A stretch of 46,569 bases of DNA from Candidatus Daviesbacteria bacterium (GTDB lineage: Bacteria; Patescibacteriota; Microgenomatia; Daviesbacterales; UBA10151): assembly GCA_016198275.1 (NCBI GenBank), contig JACQIX010000025.1:1-46569 (forward strand), written 5' to 3'. Shown here piece by piece: positions 1,649-24,666 of the stretch. A program made the position numbers and the translations under genes. Position 1 is the first letter of the stretch. The number at the start of each line of letters is the position of its first letter. Under the pieces are notes generated by a model, which ran no database searches, was not told the origin of the DNA, and saw only the letters and a program-made list of their open reading frames with translations.

Positions 1649-3223
1649 TCAATAGGTGTTAGTAGGTGGTAAAAGAGGTACTTTCTCAGGATAAATCTTC
1701 ACTTCTGCAAAGTCTGCATTGTGGTTTACCTGTTCAATTACAATTTTACTGCCAAAAGGTTGGTGTTTGTCTTTATTACAGGCTAAATCTGCTCTTTTGT
1801 CGCATAAACTAATCGAATAAAAGTAGCTCCCTTTAGGGGATGGTAATGGTAAGGGAGGCTGTAAATTCCAAAGAGTTGTCATATGATACGGTATACCTGT
1901 CCAGGTATGAATACTAACACCGTTTGTAATCTCTGGTGGTAATTTTTGGTCAAATCCCACAGGTTTTCTGAAAGAAATGTAAATATATTCGGATTGTTTG
2001 GAAATATTGGGGATCAGTATATAAGGATACTCTTCATCAAACACCCTTCCCCAGGGAGGATTCTGAAACTTCTCTAAACGGATTTTTACTAGCTTCAATC
2101 GGTCACTATCAGGGTATTCCAGGGGAGCTATTCTATAAGTTTTTTCATTTACTATCTCATCCAGCTCAACTACCTCTTTTGAGTCGCCCGGAGACAACCA
2201 ACCAAGTGCTGATTTTTGTAAGGCATTGTAATGGATGGCCAGATCCTTATGCAAAGATAAAAATCCCATGGCGCTATATCTATCTCCTAATCCTTCAAAA
2301 ACGCAATTATCCCAGTCCCTGGGACCATTTAGCCTGCAAGATAACATACCTGAGTGGCCTAGCCCCAAGTTATGGCCCAGTTCATGGGCGTAAAGACTAA
2401 TATAATCAAAATCTGTAAGTATCCAGGTTCGGTGTTTACCATCCAAGTCAGCAAAGATACTCGCCATGCTAGCCGGGCAATAAACTATATTGGCAACTGG
2501 AATGATAAACATTAAGTGGGTAAACTGTAAGAGCTTGTTAGTATCAATCTTTCTTTCAATCTCGTCTGCTACACTCCGAAGTGGACAAAACTGCAAATCA
2601 TCTGGATTGTCAGCTGCTGGGGTATTGTCCAATTCATAATTTTCAATAATCTCAGCATTAAATTGCAGCTTGCCATAAGAATTTTCCTTAAAGTAGTCTT
2701 TGCTCAGTTTTCCTGACTCTCCCATTATCGAGTTTAAAATTTCATCCCCTGGCATCTTAGCAGGATCAGTTATTAACTCTCCTTTGTTAATATTTACTTT
2801 TATTATTCCCACCTTTATCTCTCCTGAAACTTCTTTTTGAAAAGTATCTTCTAAGATTTTGATAAAGTTTGAAGAATCTGCCTTTGCTGAAATCCTTCCA
2901 TTTTTTAAGATTCCGTTTATTCTGATCCTGCTTCCGCCAGCTATTGGGATCTTTTTATTGCCGCTATCAATAATTAAAGTTAAGCTAGGGTTATCATCAG
3001 GTCTAAAAAGATATAATTCATTACTTTTCTTTTTACTAAAAAAGTCTGAATGGATAGCTGTAAATTTTCCAGTTGCCTCGTATTCACTGCTTGAAAATAT
3101 ATTTGCTTTTGGCAAAAAATTTGTCCGGTTGTTTACTAAATAAACTCCAGCTGCAATTCCAACAAGAATTAATAAAAGCAAAAAAATATGAGCAAAACCA
3201 GCTTGGTTTAATTTGTCAGTCAC
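1649..3223 (-). CDS. Surface metzincin metalloprotease (M11/gametolysin-like) with a prepilin-like N-terminus
   Basis: HELGHNLGLGH zinc motif, downstream GDRYSAMG Met-turn, DYFKENSYGKL segment; N-terminus QAG|FAHIFLLLLILVGIAAGVYLV. Confidence 0.8.
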   Translation of the reverse strand: MTDKLNQAGFAHIFLLLLILVGIAAGVYLVNNRTNFLPKANIFSSSEYEATGKFTAIHSDFFSKKKSNELYLFRPDDNPSLTLIIDSGNKKIPIAGGSRIRINGILKNGRISAKADSSNFIKILEDTFQKEVSGEIKVGIIKVNINKGELITDPAKMPGDEILNSIMGESGKLSKDYFKENSYGKLQFNAEIIENYELDNTPAADNPDDLQFCPLRSVADEIERKIDTNKLLQFTHLMFIIPVANIVYCPASMASIFADLDGKHRTWILTDFDYISLYAHELGHNLGLGHSGMLSCRLNGPRDWDNCVFEGLGDRYSAMGFLSLHKDLAIHYNALQKSALGWLSPGDSKEVVELDEIVNEKTYRIAPLEYPDSDRLKLVKIRLEKFQNPPWGRVFDEEYPYILIPNISKQSEYIYISFRKPVGFDQKLPPEITNGVSIHTWTGIPYHMTTLWNLQPPLPLPSPKGSYFYSISLCDKRADLACNKDKHQPFGSKIVIEQVNHNADFAEVKIYPEKVPLLPPTNTY

Positions 3224-18077: not shown

Positions 18078-19919
18078 ATGGTTAAAAAGAAAAAAAATTT
18101 AGGGTATGCTTTTGGGGAGGAACTTTCTAAAGTCAAGGATAAAATTAAGCATATTAAAAAAGAGCAAGCTTTAGAGTGGACAGATATATTACTGCCTAAT
18201 TTCCATCCCGGCAGCAGTCATTCAATACAACACAGTAGTTGGGTAGTTGCCTTTTTTGCCGTTTCCACTCTGGTATTATTTTTTGTTCTTTTTTTACGGC
18301 TTTTTCATCTGCAAATAGTTACTGGCAAGCAAAACAGGGAACTGGCTGATGGTAATCGTATTCAGATAAAGATTATCCATGCGCCCCGCGGGGTTATCTT
18401 TGATAGAAACGGCAAAGTACTGGCAGCTAATTCTCCGGCTTTTAGGTTGGTTGATAGGGAGGCCAAAACCAGGTTAATAACTAGAGAGGAGGCATTGGAG
18501 TTAGAGGTGAAAAATGACCAAAGAGTGGCTGATTTGGAAGTTGATAATCTCAGAAATTATCCAAAGGGGCAGGAATTTGCTCATATTTTAGGATATGTAG
18601 GACAGATTTCCCAAGCCCAGCTAAACTTAACTGAATTTAATAATTATAAACCGGCAGACCAGGTTGGCAAAATGGGAGTGGAAGCTCAGTATGAGAGTTT
18701 ACTCAGAGGAATTGACGGAGGGGAGATTATCGAGGTAGATTCAAAGGGTAATAAACTGCGGACTTTGCGACGCAACCCTCCTATTGCCGGACAAAATATT
18801 TATCTGACAATTGATGCGGATTTGCAAACTAGGATTTATCAGCTGATGCAGGAAACTTTAAAGCAGGCGATAGGTAGCTGTTGCGGCGCTGCCATTGCCA
18901 TGGATCCTACAAACGGCCAGGTTTTAGCCCTTGTTTCACTACCCTCATTTGACCCGAATATTTTTACCCAAAATATTGATGAAGGGGCAATTTCGGATAT
19001 TCTTACCCGCTCCGATTCACCAATACTAAACCGGGTTATAGCCGGCACTTACCCGCCGGGTTCTACTTTTAAAATTATCTCATCACTGGCAGCACTTTCT
19101 TCCGGTAAGATCAGCCCTGAGACAACTTTTGTAGATAATGGTTTTATCTATTTGGGGACATTCAAATTTAGCAACTGGTATTTTAATCAATACGGTAAGG
19201 TGGAAGGATCGGTCAATCTAACAAAAGCAATTCAGCGGTCTAATGATACTTATTTTTATGAAGTTGCTAGAATTATAGGTGAAAAATTACTGGGCAGTTG
19301 GGCAAAAAAGGTGAAAATGGGTGGAAAACTTAACATAGATTTACCTGGGGAAGCAGGAGGAATAATTCCTGATGGCGGGTGGAAGAAAAAAAATCTGGGA
19401 GAATATTGGTACCCCGGCGATACCTTGCACATGGTTATAGGCCAGGGGTTTGTGACTGCTACTCCTTTGCAGATTTTGGGGATTACTTCCTTTATTGCCG
19501 CAGATGGCAATTTATATCAGCCGCAAATTCTTTTAAACTCTAAACCTAAGATATTAATTTCCAATTTGCTGACTCAGGATAAAATTAAAGTTATTAAAGA
19601 GGGGTTGAAACTGGTTCCGAAAACAGGAGGGACAGCCTGGCCTTTTTTTACCTTCCCCATCATTACAGCCGGAAAAACCGGCACTGCGGAATATGGTGAT
19701 GTTAAAAACAGGACTCATGCTTGGTATACCTCTTTTGCTCCTGCCGATGATCCTAAAATTGCCATGACTGTTTTAATAGAAGGAGGAGGAGAGGGATCAT
19801 CCGTAGCAGCCCCGGTTGTCAAGGAAACTTATCGTTGGTATTTTTCAACAGATAAAAATAAATTAATAGAGGATATCTATACTCCAGCAACAGATTCTGG
19901 TAAAACTTTAGGAGAATAG
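18078..19919 (+). CDS. mrdA: Penicillin-binding protein 2 (class B transpeptidase)
   Basis: APRGVIFDRNG, STFK (SxxK), SND (SxN variant), KTGTAE; follows mreCD. Confidence 0.93.
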   Translation: MVKKKKNLGYAFGEELSKVKDKIKHIKKEQALEWTDILLPNFHPGSSHSIQHSSWVVAFFAVSTLVLFFVLFLRLFHLQIVTGKQNRELADGNRIQIKIIHAPRGVIFDRNGKVLAANSPAFRLVDREAKTRLITREEALELEVKNDQRVADLEVDNLRNYPKGQEFAHILGYVGQISQAQLNLTEFNNYKPADQVGKMGVEAQYESLLRGIDGGEIIEVDSKGNKLRTLRRNPPIAGQNIYLTIDADLQTRIYQLMQETLKQAIGSCCGAAIAMDPTNGQVLALVSLPSFDPNIFTQNIDEGAISDILTRSDSPILNRVIAGTYPPGSTFKIISSLAALSSGKISPETTFVDNGFIYLGTFKFSNWYFNQYGKVEGSVNLTKAIQRSNDTYFYEVARIIGEKLLGSWAKKVKMGGKLNIDLPGEAGGIIPDGGWKKKNLGEYWYPGDTLHMVIGQGFVTATPLQILGITSFIAADGNLYQPQILLNSKPKILISNLLTQDKIKVIKEGLKLVPKTGGTAWPFFTFPIITAGKTGTAEYGDVKNRTHAWYTSFAPADDPKIAMTVLIEGGGEGSSVAAPVVKETYRWYFSTDKNKLIEDIYTPATDSGKTLGE

Positions 19920-19933
19920 GGATTTAATCGATT

Positions 19934-20266
19934 ATGCCAACTACGCCAGAAAGTCCGCGGTTTCAATAGTCAGGGATAGACGTGGCTGATGTACCAGCAG
20001 AAGATACTGCCGAAGAAGCAATAATCAGAAGATTGGATATTTTTAATGCGTTAGATTGTTTAACCCCTTGGCAAAAAAGAGTAATAGTTTTAAAATTTGG
20101 ATTGGAGGATGGTATACAAAGGACTTTAGGTGAGGTAGCGAAAGAATGTGGATGGAAAACAAGCTAAACTGCTAGAAGAGTAGAATTAAAAGTATTAAGA
20201 CGCTTAAGACGTCCACCCATATCAAACAAACTTAAAGGATATCACGAGTTTCGCACATTGGTGTGA
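19934..20266 (+). pseudogene. Stand-alone sigma-70 region 4 protein interrupted by two in-frame stops
   Basis: One frame from ATG 19934 to TGA 20264: MPTTPESPRFQ*SGIDVAD...LTPWQKRVIVLKFGLEDGIQRTLGEVAKECGWKTS*TARRVELKVLRRLRRP...; stops TAG 19967 and TAA 20165; matches RpoD region 4. Confidence 0.8.
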
Positions 20267-20340
20267 TTTAAGCTACGCTTAAAGTGTGAGTAAATCACTC
20301 TTGTTAATCGCTACTTTTTCTACTTAGCAAGCGTATTATT

Positions 20341-21072
20341 ATGGAAAACACCTTTCAAGCTCCTACACAACCCAATACATCAAACATATCAGAAACAACC
20401 TCTTCTTCCCAACCATCTTTAGAGAGAAAACGCAATTGGAAAAAATGGATATTGATAACCGTAGTTTTTCTTGCACTTTTCGCAAGTCTTCTCTATTTCT
20501 ATGCCTTAAAACTTTCAAGCTCAAAACCCATCGCCCACGCCCCTAACCCAACCGTTACCCAGATCATACCTCAAGATGCAACGGAAAATTGGAAGACGTA
20601 TACAAATTCAGAGAATATGTTTACTATACAATATCCACCTAATCTTTATGTAAAAGGAGGTGGCCAACAAATCTTTTTAGCCAAACAAGACGCAACTGAT
20701 GCTGAGAAAATTGATTATTCAGATGAATTGGTTGAAATACGCATTGATACTTTCATCAATAGATTTGAGAGTTATTATACTACTCCAGATAACACTCAAG
20801 TTAAAAATTATGGTGATACCAAACTAAAAAGCTATTCAATTGATGGATATAAAGCTGTTTTATATGGATACGGTGAAAAAGACAAAGAAAAGGAAATTAA
20901 GTCAAATGAAGAAGCAGTGAAATCAGGCGCAAGTGTTGGAATGATCTATTTCAAGAGAGGTTTAATGGTTAATAAAAATGGTGTAAAAATAGAAATTTCA
21001 ACAAATTCCTACACTGGCGAATTTAAAAATACTTTTGATCAAATCCTCTCCACTTTTAAATTCACTCAATAA
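20341..21072 (+). CDS. Single-TM surface protein, PsbP-like CPR family (paralogue A)
   Basis: TM, P/T linker, NWKTYTN..FTIQYP, C-terminal TFDQILSTFKF. Confidence 0.8.
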   Translation: MENTFQAPTQPNTSNISETTSSSQPSLERKRNWKKWILITVVFLALFASLLYFYALKLSSSKPIAHAPNPTVTQIIPQDATENWKTYTNSENMFTIQYPPNLYVKGGGQQIFLAKQDATDAEKIDYSDELVEIRIDTFINRFESYYTTPDNTQVKNYGDTKLKSYSIDGYKAVLYGYGEKDKEKEIKSNEEAVKSGASVGMIYFKRGLMVNKNGVKIEISTNSYTGEFKNTFDQILSTFKFTQ

Positions 21073-21097
21073 TAAGATTAACTTCTAGCTCGTCACA

Positions 21098-21129
21098 GAT
21101 CCTGGACGCGCTACGCTTGCCAGGATGAC
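21098..21129. repeat. Hairpin repeat, copy 1 (GATCCTGG...CCAGGATGAC)
   Basis: Stem ATCCTGG/CCAGGAT around ACGCGCTACGCTTG. Confidence 0.85.
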
Positions 21130-21144
21130 GCCCTGTTTTTTTAC

Positions 21145-21182
21145 GTCATTCTGGTAACGAACGTAGTGAGGAATCCAGAATC
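21145..21182. repeat. Hairpin repeat, copy 2 (GTCATTCTGG...CCAGAATC)
   Basis: Opposite orientation to copy 1; contains the TGA that closes the restored GIY-YIG frame. Confidence 0.85.
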
Positions 21183-21459
21183 TGATTGTAAAGGTCTTTA
21201 AAGTTCGGATTAAATTTAGTAATCATTTCCAATTTATCCTTTCTATTCATATCTTTAATTTGTTTTTCCTGATGATCGCTTGTTCTATAGTATTAAGTAA
21301 TTCGTAGAAAACAAGTTTATGAAGATTATATTTTGAAGTAAAACCTTTAACAAGATTATTTTTATGCTGATACACTCTTTTTACTAAATTATTAGTTACA
21401 CCCGTATATAAGGTTGGCCTATCGTTAGCCATAATGTAAACACATCCACCTTTGTTCAT
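21146..21459 (-). pseudogene. Stand-alone GIY-YIG endonuclease with a 1-nt frameshift near 21268
   Basis: [48 protein letters not shown]; the shifted frame continues [30 protein letters not shown], the canonical family C-terminus. Confidence 0.85.
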
Positions 21460-21461
21460 AA

Positions 21462-21504
21462 GATTCTGGATGTGTCCGGTGTTCACCGGACTTACCAGAA
21501 TGAC
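21462..21504. repeat. Hairpin repeat, copy 3 (GATTCTGG...CCAGAATGAC)
   Basis: Inner stem GTCCGGTG/CACCGGAC; ends 2 nt upstream of the GIY-YIG ATG; inverted relative to copy 2. Confidence 0.85.
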
Positions 21505-21591
21505 GGAGTGCGTATAACTAACTAGTTGCTCTTCCCCGCTCCTTTTTTGAAAAATCGTCTCTTTTTTCCTAACTATGGATCAGTAGTGTTA

Positions 21592-21606
21592 CACCCTTGG
21601 GGTGGA
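21592..21606. repeat. Intergenic copy of the CACCCTTGGGGTGGA palindrome
   Basis: Exact 15-bp match to 6760-6774. Confidence 0.65.
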
Positions 21607-21634
21607 CTAGGTTGACACCTACGGAAAATCATGT

Positions 21635-21955
21635 CTAAGCGAATTTTGCCCGGTGCTGTAAAATATTTGCCCATGTCAAGGCCTTCTCAGCCCAATCATT
21701 TTTATTAGTTTCATTTTTCTCATCTAAAAGCTGTTGAAATTCTTTCTGAAAATGACGAAGTGTTGGTTGAAAACGACTCGGGACTGTTCTTGTAGAGAGA
21801 TTCAAAAGAAAACCCTCAGTTTCTTTTAAAAACTGATCCATACGCTGTTGCTTGTGTTGACTCTTAGAAAGAACCCAATCACTGACTCTTGCGAGATTAA
21901 CAGAAATATCAAGCACTAAATCTATATTCTTTATCATATTCTCAATCTCTACCAC
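21635..21955 (-). CDS. Hypothetical helical protein (start may be ATG 21937)
   Basis: 106 aa ORF directly downstream of the DUF5674-like gene. Confidence 0.65.
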   Translation of the reverse strand: MVEIENMIKNIDLVLDISVNLARVSDWVLSKSQHKQQRMDQFLKETEGFLLNLSTRTVPSRFQPTLRHFQKEFQQLLDEKNETNKNDWAEKALTWANILQHRAKFA

Positions 21956-21978
21956 TAATATACTAGTATATTAGTGGT
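21951..21978. promoter_or_regulatory. Perfect 28-bp palindrome (operator or hairpin candidate)
   Basis: ACCACTAATATACT|AGTATATTAGTGGT; carries TATACT on both strands. Confidence 0.6.
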
Positions 21979-21994
21979 TATACATTTTTGTATA

Positions 21995-22324
21995 CTACAT
22001 TAGGAATTTCTTTATATTTTTATCAAATTTCTCTCGAATTTCTTGCGACATAATATCACGGCTCATGTTTCCGAGTATTGGTCGAATATTTATCATTGAA
22101 TTATAATCAACCTCTTTCGTTTCTAAATCAAGACCTCCACCCCACAAATTATCTTGTTTGGAACCTTCTTTTAGTAATAATTGCTCTGCGTCAACATGCC
22201 GCTTTCCACCACCTGCCAAAATTCCTCTTTCAATATCTACCACAACCTTTATGTAACCGCTAAAATCCTCTGCCATTTTTTGTAATTCTTCTTCAGTTGC
22301 TTTTTTGCGAATAATTAAAATCAC
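21995..22324 (-). CDS. DUF5674-like protein (probable GTG start 22324)
   Basis: IKVVVDIERGILAGGG.RHVDAEQLLL..GS.Q.NLWGG...SMINIRP; TGTTACAAT 6 nt upstream of the GTG. Confidence 0.7.
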   Translation of the reverse strand: MILIIRKKATEEELQKMAEDFSGYIKVVVDIERGILAGGGKRHVDAEQLLLKEGSKQDNLWGGGLDLETKEVDYNSMINIRPILGNMSRDIMSQEIREKFDKNIKKFLM

Positions 22325-22450
22325 GCATTTATTGTAACACAATACATCTACTCATTCTGTATCTAAATCTGAACTTTCTTAAATCTTTTGAAACATTGAC
22401 ATAAATTCATTTTCATTGACAATCAACATCTCTCATGCAACACTTGAGCT

Positions 22451-23119
22451 ATGGAAAACACTAACCAACCACCAATAGCCACGCCACCTCCCCCACAAGA
22501 AATTCCAGTGAATAAACCAACTCGATGGAAAATGTGGTTACTTATCGCAAGCGTTGTGGTCGCTTCCATTGCAAGCGTATTGTATTTCTCTGTCTTAAAA
22601 CTCCCCCTCTCCAAACCCATCACCCACGCCCCTGCACCAACGTCAACGCCAGTTGAACAAACCGACCCAACAGCAGATTGGAAAACGTATACGAATGCCT
22701 CCTTTAATTTCACGCTCCAATATCCACCTGAATTAAGTATGCAAAAAAACGCTTCTGATAATCTGACTGAATTTGTTACATCTGATTATGCTATAGATAC
22801 AAAATCTGGGCCAAATGCAGGAGCAATGATTAAAGGAAGTAAGATAACAATTAGTGTTTGGCCTCCCACTGATGAAGGATTTCTTGAAAGATATTGTAAT
22901 TCAAAAAACGCATCAGAAACAATGTGTAAAGTAACTTCAATTAAAGGGTATAAAGCAGCAGAGATCGTTCAAAACAAGAAACAACGAAAAGAAGTGGCTA
23001 TACAACTGAGCAAAAGTGAGACTGTTAGCATTTCTGCCGAAATATCAGATGTATCGAATCAATTATTTTTTATGACCTTCGACCAAATCCTCTCAACTTT
23101 TAAATTCATCCAGCAGTAA
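22451..23119 (+). CDS. Single-TM surface protein, PsbP-like CPR family (paralogue B)
   Basis: TM, SKPITHAP linker, DWKTYTN..FTLQYP, C-terminal TFDQILSTFKF. Confidence 0.8.
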   Translation: MENTNQPPIATPPPPQEIPVNKPTRWKMWLLIASVVVASIASVLYFSVLKLPLSKPITHAPAPTSTPVEQTDPTADWKTYTNASFNFTLQYPPELSMQKNASDNLTEFVTSDYAIDTKSGPNAGAMIKGSKITISVWPPTDEGFLERYCNSKNASETMCKVTSIKGYKAAEIVQNKKQRKEVAIQLSKSETVSISAEISDVSNQLFFMTFDQILSTFKFIQQ

Positions 23120-23123
23120 TGTC

Positions 23124-23172
23124 GTCATTCTGGCTTGACGGGTTACCTCTGGTACCCGTCTGGTCCAGAATC
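23124..23172. repeat. Hairpin repeat, copy 4 (GTCATTCTGG...CCAGAATC)
   Basis: Inner stem GACGGGT/ACCCGTC; begins 4 nt after the stop of paralogue B. Confidence 0.85.
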
Positions 23173-23232
23173 TGTTTGTTTTTCCCTGATGATCCCTTGC
23201 TCTGTTTCAGATAAGCGATTAAAGTAAATAAT

Positions 23233-24312
23233 ATGATTAATAATATTCCATTTCTGCTGGCGTTGCACTCGGTTGATGGGTTGGGGCCGATTAGGCTCAA
23301 GGCGATTTTAGATTATTTTAAAGATCCTAAACTGGCTTGGGAGGCAAATAGAAATCAGCTGCAAGAAATTGGTATTCCTGCAAGCGCAGTTAATCTGTTG
23401 GTGGAAATACGCAGGAAATTGGATCCTTTTGGCTATGCTCAGTCAATTGCAGATTCGGGTATAAAGTGGATGAGTGTATTTGATCAAAATTACCCAAAAC
23501 TGCTGGCTCAGATTTATGCTCCGCCGGTAATTTTGTATTATCAGGGAGAAATTCAGCCCGAAGATAAAAAAGCCATTGCCATTGTCGGCACCAGAAAAAT
23601 GACAGGGTACGGCAAGGTTGTTGCACAAAACTTCACTAAAGAGTTGAGTTTGGCTGGACTAACCATTGTTTCAGGGTTAGCCCGGGGGATAGACAGCCAA
23701 GCGCATTTAACTGCCATAGAAAATTCAGGCAGGACCATTGCTGTCTTAGGCGGCGGGTTAAATAATCTTTTCCCGCCGGAAAATAGGGGTTTGGCGGCAA
23801 AAATTGCCTTAGGCTTTGGGGCAGTTATTTCTGAGTTCCCGCCGGATTGCCCTTCACTCCCCGGTAACTTTCCTGCCAGAAACAGAATTATCTCCGGTTT
23901 ATCGTTAGGGGTTTGTGTCGTGGAGGCAGCAGAAGATAGCGGTTCGTTGATTACTGCCAGGCATGCTTTGGAGCAGGGCCGGGAAGTATTTGCTGTACCC
24001 GGACCAATCACCTCTGCTCTTTCAAAAGGCCCGATTACTTTAATTCAAGAGGGAGCAAGGATAGTATACTCTCCGGAGGATATTTTAGAAGAGCTAAGAA
24101 TTGACCGCTCTGGTCGGATTGATAAGATTAGTCAAGATCTTTCAGATGAGGAGAAGAAAGTTTTGGCATCTTTGGAAAATGAAAATATGCACATAGATGA
24201 TCTGGGACGAAAACTAGTTTTTCCTGCTGCCAAGATTTCCGCCTTGCTTTTAAAGATGGAAATTTCGGGACTTGTTCAAAGCTTGGGCAGTGGGATATAC
24301 TGCAGGAGATGA
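23233..24312 (+). CDS. dprA: DNA processing protein DprA
   Basis: AIVGTR, IVSGLARGID, FPARNRIISGLS, SGSLITA, GREVFAVPG. Confidence 0.97.
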   Translation: MINNIPFLLALHSVDGLGPIRLKAILDYFKDPKLAWEANRNQLQEIGIPASAVNLLVEIRRKLDPFGYAQSIADSGIKWMSVFDQNYPKLLAQIYAPPVILYYQGEIQPEDKKAIAIVGTRKMTGYGKVVAQNFTKELSLAGLTIVSGLARGIDSQAHLTAIENSGRTIAVLGGGLNNLFPPENRGLAAKIALGFGAVISEFPPDCPSLPGNFPARNRIISGLSLGVCVVEAAEDSGSLITARHALEQGREVFAVPGPITSALSKGPITLIQEGARIVYSPEDILEELRIDRSGRIDKISQDLSDEEKKVLASLENENMHIDDLGRKLVFPAAKISALLLKMEISGLVQSLGSGIYCRR

Positions 24313-24315
24313 GCT

Positions 24316-24666
24316 ATGCCTAAATTATACCTGCTCCTAATTTGCCTTTCTGTTGTAGTAGTTACGGCTGTTCTGACGATAATATTTAACTTCACTTTTA
24401 ACAAATCAACCTCAAAATCAGAAATTGAGACAGCCATCAACCAAGCCAAGTTTTTATACCGCCAGAAAAAGCAGCAGGGTGAGGATTTTTCCAACGGTCC
24501 CTGCCTTTCCAATGCCATACTGCCAAACTGGGTGGCAGATATAGCTCACAGCCCCCGCCAAAGCACCGATGATTTAACTCAAAATCAATGCCCCTCTTTT
24601 TTGGAAGGCAGTGCACAGCATTTTGTGGAACTTGATTTAGAGGGGAATTTGATAAGGGCTAAATAA
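24316..24666 (+). CDS. Small membrane-anchored exported protein with two cysteines
   Basis: N-terminal TM; GPCLSN...WVADIAHSPR...NQCPSF...HFVELD. Confidence 0.7.
   Translation: MPKLYLLLICLSVVVVTAVLTIIFNFTFNKSTSKSEIETAINQAKFLYRQKKQQGEDFSNGPCLSNAILPNWVADIAHSPRQSTDDLTQNQCPSFLEGSAQHFVELDLEGNLIRAK

Follow-up and report, generated by a model that had tools for sequence, protein, structure and literature searches.

We put the probability at roughly 0.85 that a locus around a small GIY-YIG nuclease gene, in a 46,569-nt stretch of DNA from a Candidatus Daviesbacteria bacterium (contig JACQIX010000025.1; hereafter, the window), consists of two decayed copies of an Ssn/SRM cassette, in which the nuclease gene is bracketed by its cognate tagged hairpins. 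Ssn single-strand DNA nucleases and their NTS/SRM hairpin repeats were described by Chenal et al. (Nat Commun 2025, PMC11893778), and the locus itself would be an ordinary, decayed example of the system published in 2025. Under this reading, the elements of the locus are the following:

21144-21505, minus strand: cassette 1 (hairpin, ssn pseudogene, hairpin), a complete Ssn/SRM cassette of 362 bp, from its inverted ends and the hairpin pattern
21146-21459, minus strand: ssn pseudogene for a small GIY-YIG nuclease, from Pfam and translations
21098-21130 (pattern match 21098-21129), minus strand: hairpin copy 1, a solo SRM, from pattern and fold
21144-21182 (pattern match 21145-21182), plus strand: hairpin copy 2, 3' of the nuclease gene, from pattern and fold
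21462-21505 (pattern match 21462-21504), minus strand: hairpin copy 3, 5' of the nuclease gene, from pattern and fold
23123-23172 (pattern match 23124-23172), plus strand: hairpin copy 4, which ends cassette 2 on its downstream side, from pattern and fold
23173 to ~23215, minus strand: second ssn gene remnant, from repeats D7 and D13 and translation

A search of the window for GTCATYCTGG-N(8-38)-CCAGRATC returned exactly four matches and none in 100 dinucleotide-preserving shuffles, which served as the chance control. The four hairpins with the common ends GTCATYCTGG...CCAGRATC at 21098, 21145, 21462 and 23124, which a preliminary description of this DNA had pointed out, are thus recovered as exact matches. 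The 10-mer GTCATYCTGG alone, with up to one mismatch, is found at 10 window sites versus 3.4 expected, and the four exact sites are the hairpins. All four hairpins have an extra leading C, which makes the tag CGTCAT, and the 3' side then reads ATCT(G/T). Copies 2 and 3 are inverted and abut the nuclease gene, as the preliminary description had stated: their ends form 14-nt perfect terminal inverted repeats, CGTCATTCTGGTAA (21144-21157 and 21492-21505), the ATG of the gene (21459-21457) lies 2 nt past the end of copy 3, and the TGA that closes the C-terminal reading frame (21148-21146) is the TCA within the GTCAT tag of copy 2. The open reading frames of two relatives (L054 and L055) likewise extend into the hairpin and end with ...GQILDKPE at the stop codon of the tag.

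The Pfam GIY-YIG domain (PF01541) matches the first 70 codons of the gene (E 3.6e-10) and is the sole domain found; neither NCBIfam nor PHROGs has a family for the window nuclease protein. In this it resembles SsnA of Neisseria meningitidis, a 94-aa single-domain GIY-YIG protein whose binding to the folded NTS hairpin requires single-stranded DNA and is restricted to one of the two strands, and which cleaves a few bases 5' of the tag (PMC11893778). Homologues from three other species have the same activity on their own repeats, with enzymes of Neisseria and Wolbachia among those tested; the SRM was found near 71% of homologues, on both sides in 42%, Ssn was defined by the CDD family cd10448, and the criterion for homology to Neisseria SsnA was E < 1e-10 (PMC11893778). 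The ends of the window hairpins, CGTCATTC...GAATCTG, match both ends of the published Neisseria NTS consensus, CGTCATTCCCGCGMAVGCGGGAATCYRG (PMC11893778).

A profile built from 20 intact relatives was searched against 61 genomes of the genus Neisseria and matched 22 of them; 19 of these account for 24 matches with E values between 1e-35 and 1e-42. A 94-aa gene that has one exact NTS 4 nt past its stop codon, and 15 exact NTS within 3.3 kb, ranks first. Its product shares 57% identity with the N-terminal part of the window protein (E 2e-26, below the published threshold), 54% with the closest intact relative (E 4e-33) and 43% with an intact paralogue on contig C18 of the source genome (E 1e-28). 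The window gene encodes a small protein with GIY-YIG as its sole Pfam domain, the gene itself being frameshifted, and has inverted hairpins with CGTCAT-type tags on both sides. The window protein has no match in the representative genomes of Neisseria lactamica and N. mucosa, where the sole small GIY-YIG gene is of the YhbQ type and lacks NTS flanks.

The hairpins differ in their interior. They were folded as single-stranded DNA, each against 200 shuffles: copy 4 (-14.2 kcal/mol, z -6.4), with an inner stem, and copy 3 (-12.1 kcal/mol, z -4.2), with a 7-bp outer and a 7-bp inner stem, are matched by none of the shuffles, and copy 1 (-7.5 kcal/mol, z -2.3), whose inner stem has just 3 bp, by 6. 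Copy 2 (-3.4 kcal/mol, z -0.1) has only its 7-bp outer stem, and since 91 of the 200 shuffles fold as well, it is unremarkable by energy alone. L055, the closest relative, has an upstream hairpin built like copy 3 (TAAG, inner stem, RCAT), with a different but compensating inner stem. The suggestion that structure is kept over sequence is fair, though the examples are few. The loop of copy 1, CAAGCGTAGCGCGT, resembles that of the downstream hairpin of the C18 cassette, and the loop of copy 2 is nearly equal to that of the upstream hairpin of L058. In the relatives L054, L057 and L058, the downstream hairpin takes the minimal form GTCATTCTGG-CTTGT-CCAGAATC; copy 4 is this minimal hairpin with a 26-nt self-pairing loop insertion, and the L056 hairpin has a 51-nt insertion at the same loop position.

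Metagenome runs were compared as contigs, which leaves minor variants possible; runs X1 and X3 may be the source sample, and X5 and X6 come from another study. In contigs of X3 and X5 that carry a sequence like hairpin 4, one G is added after 23147, within the inner stem; these contigs are short and have other contexts, which points to related hairpin copies elsewhere in the community.

The association between nuclease and hairpins was surveyed in 301 genomes of the same class, with tallies that take in G091, a genome flagged as unpublished, and with loci drawn from outside both G091 and the source genome. The C18 paralogue is matched in 256 of the 301 at E<=1e-5, the weak matches taking in other GIY-YIG types, and the N-terminal part of the window protein in 75 at E<=1e-12. 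The 29 best loci of the first search and 20 of the 29 best of the second make up 49 distinct loci. A detector that requires a GTC[AG][TC] tag pointing away from the gene and a hairpin closed by five perfect pairs found such a hairpin upstream at 45, downstream at 43 and on both sides at 40 of the 49 loci, compared with 29 of 904 control windows of 156 nt and 29 of 450 of 260 nt (3-6%). With a stricter, fold-based detector, the corresponding numbers were 39, 31 and 28, versus 40 of 990 controls, and hairpins in the wrong orientation were found at 11 and 12 of the 49 loci. An initial perfect-stem detector (12, 11 and 8 of 30) was dropped; it had missed hairpins visible by eye, including those of C18. 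The proposal that homologous GIY-YIG genes would be flanked by cognate inverted hairpins is therefore borne out.

The hairpins also follow the enzymes in their stems. The five proteins nearest to the window protein, at 62-71% identity, all come from other families of the class, as do its nearest relatives in general; each has GTCATTCTGG...CCAGAATC upstream, and four of the five have the exact GTCATTCTGG form downstream, the downstream tag of L055 being mutated (AATAAC). More distant relatives have other stems, and TCTGG, CCCGA, TGCGA, CCTGA and CYCGCG classes were seen among the enzyme/hairpin pairs. When stem class was placed on a tree of 51 N-terminal parts, 19 changes were required, compared with 28-38 in 500 label shuffles; the exception is L033, with a TCTGG stem in another clade. 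Since the tree is built on few columns, with weak support, and related rows would share labels in any case, the expected covariation of repeat and protein phylogenies holds as agreement between stem and protein tree and not as co-evolution.

The exact NTS consensus is present in many phyla, in at least 129 stretches. In a separate case, Ssn homologues in a record of the alphaproteobacterium Sphingopyxis witflariensis (L216) and in a genome of the present class (L061, G029) have the same tail, DAETSSA, encoded in both by the same downstream hairpin, GATGCTGAAACAAGTTCAGCATGAC, and near-identical hairpins are thus common to different phyla.

Across the class, the pattern GTCATYCTGG-N(3-33)-CCAGRATC, whose reversed form gave one match in all genomes, places the hairpin in 52 of the 301 genomes, with the highest counts of 85 (G084), 54 (G158), 49 (G170) and 41 (G106) in genomes of 0.5-1.2 Mb. 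Many of these copies form close (+,-) pairs with outward tags and 1-18 nt between them, equivalent to the two cassette ends without the gene; ~41 outward-tagged pairs were counted by hand from the listed matches, and eight examples were read. The window pair of copies 1 and 2, which had been described as a doublet, is indeed close, with a 13-nt gap, but its tags point toward each other, opposite to those of the common gene-less doublets. Hairpin and Ssn-like gene (E<=1e-12, all clades) are both present in 32 genomes, the hairpin only in 20, the gene only in 43 and neither in 206 (odds ratio 7.7), and 10 of the 12 genomes with at least 10 hairpin copies have an Ssn-like gene.

The cassette behaves as a discrete unit in two further comparisons. 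Genome G092 contains two cassette copies that are ~95% alike (read off the alignment by eye and uncomputed), with unrelated flanks beyond; the likeness begins at a tagged GTCAT hairpin on the upstream side and extends as far as the downstream GGAATGACG tag. In all four metagenome runs, one contig matches 21243-21507 only, ending at the cassette end, and in other contigs the match begins at 21145, the other cassette end. Several copies in the class carry stop codons.

A number of observations weigh against the assignment or limit its reach. The published degenerate SRM motif, HGTCWYN(0-2)YYVSBRHN(0-5)WNVSBRGN(0-2)RNCYNB, which is a search tool and not a family definition, matches none of the four window hairpins, yields one match in the whole source genome versus 1.35 in 20 shuffles, and catches 5 of the 49 relatives' loci. 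The motif fails here because of longer loops and less G+C-rich stems, and under the search of PMC11893778 this genome would be scored as free of SRMs despite its Ssn homologue. The 94-aa Neisseria-genus protein is judged a probable SsnA orthologue from its length, genus and NTS flanks. The repeat is also undispersed in its own genome: all four exact matches in the 788-kb, 84% complete assembly lie at the window locus (reversed-pattern control, 0), an outcome that the preliminary description had itself named as refuting. Among the genomes that bear the hairpin, 20 of 52 have no Ssn-like match at E<=1e-12, including two (G158 and G280) of the 12 with at least 10 copies, and the odds ratio overstates the association because the genomes are related and not independent. 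Finally, the mobility of the cassette is suggested by its distribution. A scan of the dprA loci of 11 relatives for tagged hairpins yielded no pair of filled and empty sites, the relatives being different genera with dprA genes ~66-70% identical in DNA. The one convincing hairpin pair came from L014 (G019:C4), where two short outward-tagged hairpins with 20 nt between them lie at 2980-3046, ~400 nt downstream of dprA; they resemble a gene-less doublet, here again close to dprA.

The second cassette is recognized next to copy 4, in the context of three host genes:

20341-21072, plus strand: host gene A, encoding a protein outside any Pfam family and predicted to be membrane-anchored, from the open reading frame and Pfam scan
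22451-23119, plus strand: host gene B, a paralogue of A, from 36% protein identity to A
23233-24312, plus strand: dprA, from Pfam DNA_processg_A (E 1.5e-75)

Cassette 1 and the solo hairpin 1 lie shortly 3' of gene A, and cassette 2 begins 3 nt past the stop codon of gene B; the 113-nt spacer between gene B and dprA is mostly cassette-derived DNA. The gene remnant adjoins hairpin 4 directly, and the sequence there, CCAGAATCTGtTTGT-TTTTCCCTGATGATCCCTTGCTCT, recapitulates the point at which hairpin 2 joins the 3' part of the gene in cassette 1; repeat D7 (21263-21286 and 23180-23203) is 88% and D13 94% identical between cassette 1 and the remnant. The minus-strand translation of the remnant, ...SETEQGIIREKQ, aligns to family residues ~55-68. 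Approximately 75 nt are deleted between two TTGT words, and the 5' half of the gene and the other hairpin are gone. Copy 4, which had been taken for a solitary copy, is thus one end of a second, heavily deleted cassette. An extension of the remnant past 23232 into the first dprA codons, suggested by an antisense likeness, was rejected as too weak; in relatives, the likeness of dprA begins at that ATG.

The two cassettes have the same orientation, each directly after one of two paralogous genes and ~2.05 kb apart, an arrangement that would be expected if copy 4 and the remnant had arisen together with gene B through an old tandem duplication of gene A plus cassette. Such a duplication would concern the history of cassette 2 only and is compatible with the assignment of both copies to the Ssn/SRM system. 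We nevertheless consider it rather unlikely, given that the A and B proteins are 36% identical, whereas the noncoding cassette pieces are 88-100% alike (10 and 8 identical end bases; D7 88%, D13 94%), which is better explained by later copying or by gene conversion than by one old duplication. In addition, the 3' end of A and B, which is more than 90% conserved in other genera too, could be a preferred target. The last ~40 nt of the two genes (21034-21073 and 23075-23119) encode FDQILSTFKF and are 84-96% identical in nucleotides in other genera, where the stretch occurs several times in clusters (for instance, G035:C3 and G036:C9); it may be a C-terminal signal, or else a recombination or target site.

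The preliminary description also held that the frame of the nuclease gene is broken, and the remnant helps to confirm this. The N-terminal frame, 21459-21250 with the stop TGA at 21249-21247, makes up the first 70 codons, and the C-terminal frame runs onward to the TGA at 21148-21146; both parts align colinearly, end to end, with intact relatives of 98-99 aa, with the junction ...AIIR | EKQIKDMNR.... At the break, the window reads ATCATCAGGAAAAAC (core AGGAAAAAC), the remnant (23180-23203) and L056 read AGGGAAAAAC, and all nine relatives checked are in frame, from which it follows that one G was lost from the G run at ~21268-21269. Contigs from runs of two studies span 21190-22076 without difference or gap, so that the frameshift is no one-off assembly error.

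Could the frameshift instead be programmed, with a -1 ribosomal slip on G-AAA-AAC producing a full-length, active nuclease? Such a slip at AGG AAA AAC would bring translation back into the conserved C-terminal frame and alter just one residue, the reading is the same in contigs of two studies, and a second, diverged contig over the site is listed without a length difference, although a missing row is no proof. Nevertheless, all nine relatives (including the Neisseria-genus protein) and the remnant are unshifted, five of the nine encoding the site as R-GAA-AAA and the rest with synonymous codons; the heptamer is imperfect, with G for A in its first position; and loss of one base in a GGG run is simpler, other copies in the class carrying stops as well. 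Programmed frameshifting is thus highly improbable, and a decayed ssn gene is the preferred interpretation.

It is more improbable still, by a small step, that the hairpins are ordinary terminators or mRNA-stabilizing stem-loops of the neighboring genes, with the nuclease adjacent by coincidence. Copies 1, 2 and 4 do lie shortly 3' of genes A and B, and a run of seven T follows 6 nt past copy 1. However, a simple terminator scan scored none of the four as terminator-like, copy 3 lies 5' of a gene, the tag is conserved in being unpaired and in the way it points, and at 40 of 49 loci the homologous nuclease gene has such tagged hairpins on both sides, compared with 3-6% for control windows. An Rfam scan of 19500-24500 at E<=1 gave no match, and the hairpins are thus not explained by an intron or a known RNA.

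Compared with the published Ssn/SRM pairs, the window locus agrees in the single-domain GIY-YIG protein of ~95-100 aa, in the inverted hairpins on either side of the gene, which have CGTCAT as their unpaired 5' tag and a 3' ATCYR, in a hairpin sequence particular to each enzyme clade, and in the dozens of copies or more in some genomes. It differs in its stem (TCTGG/CCAGA versus TCCCGCG of NTS), in its loops (14-31 nt with nested inner hairpins versus 3-4 nt published), in being a pseudogene whose repeat is unspread in its own genome, and in its host, a tiny groundwater bacterium of a lineage unmentioned in the text of PMC11893778; a search of its main text found no occurrence of Patescibacteria, CPR or candidate phyla.

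With REP elements, their associated tyrosine transposases (RAYT) and REPIN doublets, the system has in common one gene between inverted tagged hairpins and gene-less two-hairpin doublets present in many copies elsewhere. It departs from them in that the nuclease is GIY-YIG and not an HUH/Y1 tyrosine transposase, and in that the tag is CGTC(AT) and not GTAG, the four copies here lying at one locus and the doublets in other genomes of the class rather than as dispersed GTAG-tagged inverted doublets; mobility driven by Ssn is a hypothesis, put forward in the Discussion of PMC11893778. The same Discussion likens NTS-ssnA-NTS to an insertion sequence, to IS200/IS605 and to REP/RAYT, so that the proposed REP/RAYT-like GIY-YIG system is right in architecture and analogy and is not new. 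Our literature search retrieved no paper showing Ssn-driven mobility. CGTC-tagged REPs, reported by Di Nocera et al. (BMC Genomics 2013, PMC3733652) without a dedicated transposase and with no associated protein named, are likewise small palindromes, tagged at one end by an unpaired CGTC and frequently found as opposite-orientation pairs; unlike those, the repeats here and in PMC11893778 flank an Ssn gene.

Stand-alone GIY-YIG domains of ~100 aa are also typical of UPF0213/YhbQ-type proteins (PDB 1ZG2 and 1YWL), which belong to a different subfamily and whose gene in N. lactamica has no NTS flanks. A GIY-YIG homing endonuclease, either of a group I intron or free-standing, was rejected as a candidate, with no extra DNA-binding domain and no intron RNA family found. 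The least probable alternative of all is a new REP/RAYT-like system, unlike anything described, with a GIY-YIG nuclease in place of the HUH transposase: the gene between inverted tagged hairpins, the doublets elsewhere in the class and the blindness of the published SRM motif to the window hairpins would suit it, but it is largely refuted by the same protein family, CGTCAT tag and architecture in PMC11893778, by the 57% identity of the window protein to an NTS-flanked Neisseria-genus protein and by the description of CGTC-tagged REPs as a class in 2013 (PMC3733652).

The remainder of the source genome contains other GIY-YIG genes, with six stretches matching the Pfam domain. Contig C18 encodes an intact 97-aa paralogue, ~47% identical to the window protein, in the same layout and with different hairpins, GTCATCCCGA..., on both sides, and contig C31 has a lone GTCATTGCGA hairpin. 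By sequence, the sole solved structures related to the paralogue are the UPF0213 proteins 1ZG2 (E 3e-8) and 1YWL (E 3e-5); WD40 structures were rejected as spurious repeat matches. The paralogue also matches a homing-endonuclease phrog weakly (E 3.9e-8) and reaches 21.9 bits against TIGR01453, for which the cut-off is 56 and to which the window protein has no match. The other small GIY-YIG genes of the genome are of a different type and adjoin tRNA genes. At C18:57300-58000 and C32:1600-2238, such genes of a different subtype lie directly against tRNA genes, and at the C18 site the first ~17 tRNA bases are repeated upstream of the nuclease gene.

Reading the Ssn/SRM assignment as a sequence of events, enzymes of the window protein's clade would recognize GTCATTCTGG...CCAGAATC hairpins, and the outward tags at both cassette ends would place one cut per strand, immediately beyond the cassette. 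Together with its two-hairpin derivatives that lack the gene, the gene-bearing cassette would behave as a selfish, copy-prone unit. In the source genome, this unit would survive as a complete cassette 1 whose gene lacks one base, a cassette 2 reduced to one hairpin and a short gene fragment, and hairpin 1 as a solo relic. With the ssn genes broken or lost, the window hairpins are most likely orphaned in their own genome, unless the intact C18 paralogue, of different specificity, or an unassembled copy acts on them.

More tentatively, and with slightly less than even odds in our estimation, the Ssn cassette and the gene-less outward-tagged doublets may form an autonomous/nonautonomous mobile pair, a GIY-YIG counterpart of RAYT and REPIN, with loops that accept nested insertions, with most of its diversity invisible to the SRM motif and the spread of Ssn underestimated accordingly, and with the present locus at the end of the life cycle. 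As many as 85 copies of the doublets would then be present in a genome of 0.8 Mb, and the locus would record insertion behind paralogous genes, a frameshift, an internal deletion and a solo hairpin. The gene-less doublets would be suitable material on whether Ssn moves its own hairpins. Independently of such mobility, the Ssn/SRM pairs are extended to very small groundwater genomes unmentioned in the text of PMC11893778, and motif-based counts are too low, the SRM motif missing the TCTGG type and most others in the class. Single-strand DNA tools have been proposed from Ssn (PMC11893778), and enzyme/hairpin pairs with different stems, together with the long-loop variants, could widen the specificities for them.

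Two further features lie between cassette 1 and gene B. A perfect 28-nt palindrome, ACCACTAATATACTAGTATATTAGTGGT, at 21951-21978 separates a 106-aa open reading frame of unknown function from a DUF5674 gene and is terminator-like on the plus strand. At 21589-21625, a 37-nt motif combines an 8-bp inverted repeat (TTCCACCC-TTG-GGGTGGAA) with TTGACA immediately after it; the motif is present also at C2:34147-34183 and C33:6568-6604, both on the minus strand, with 86-97% identity in the source genome and in many genomes of other genera. The window copy has no obvious gene ahead, and its repeated nature shows also in the metagenome depth and loose ends. In the C33 copy, TATGCT follows 17 nt on and an ATG soon after, and the motif looks like a conserved operator-plus-promoter.

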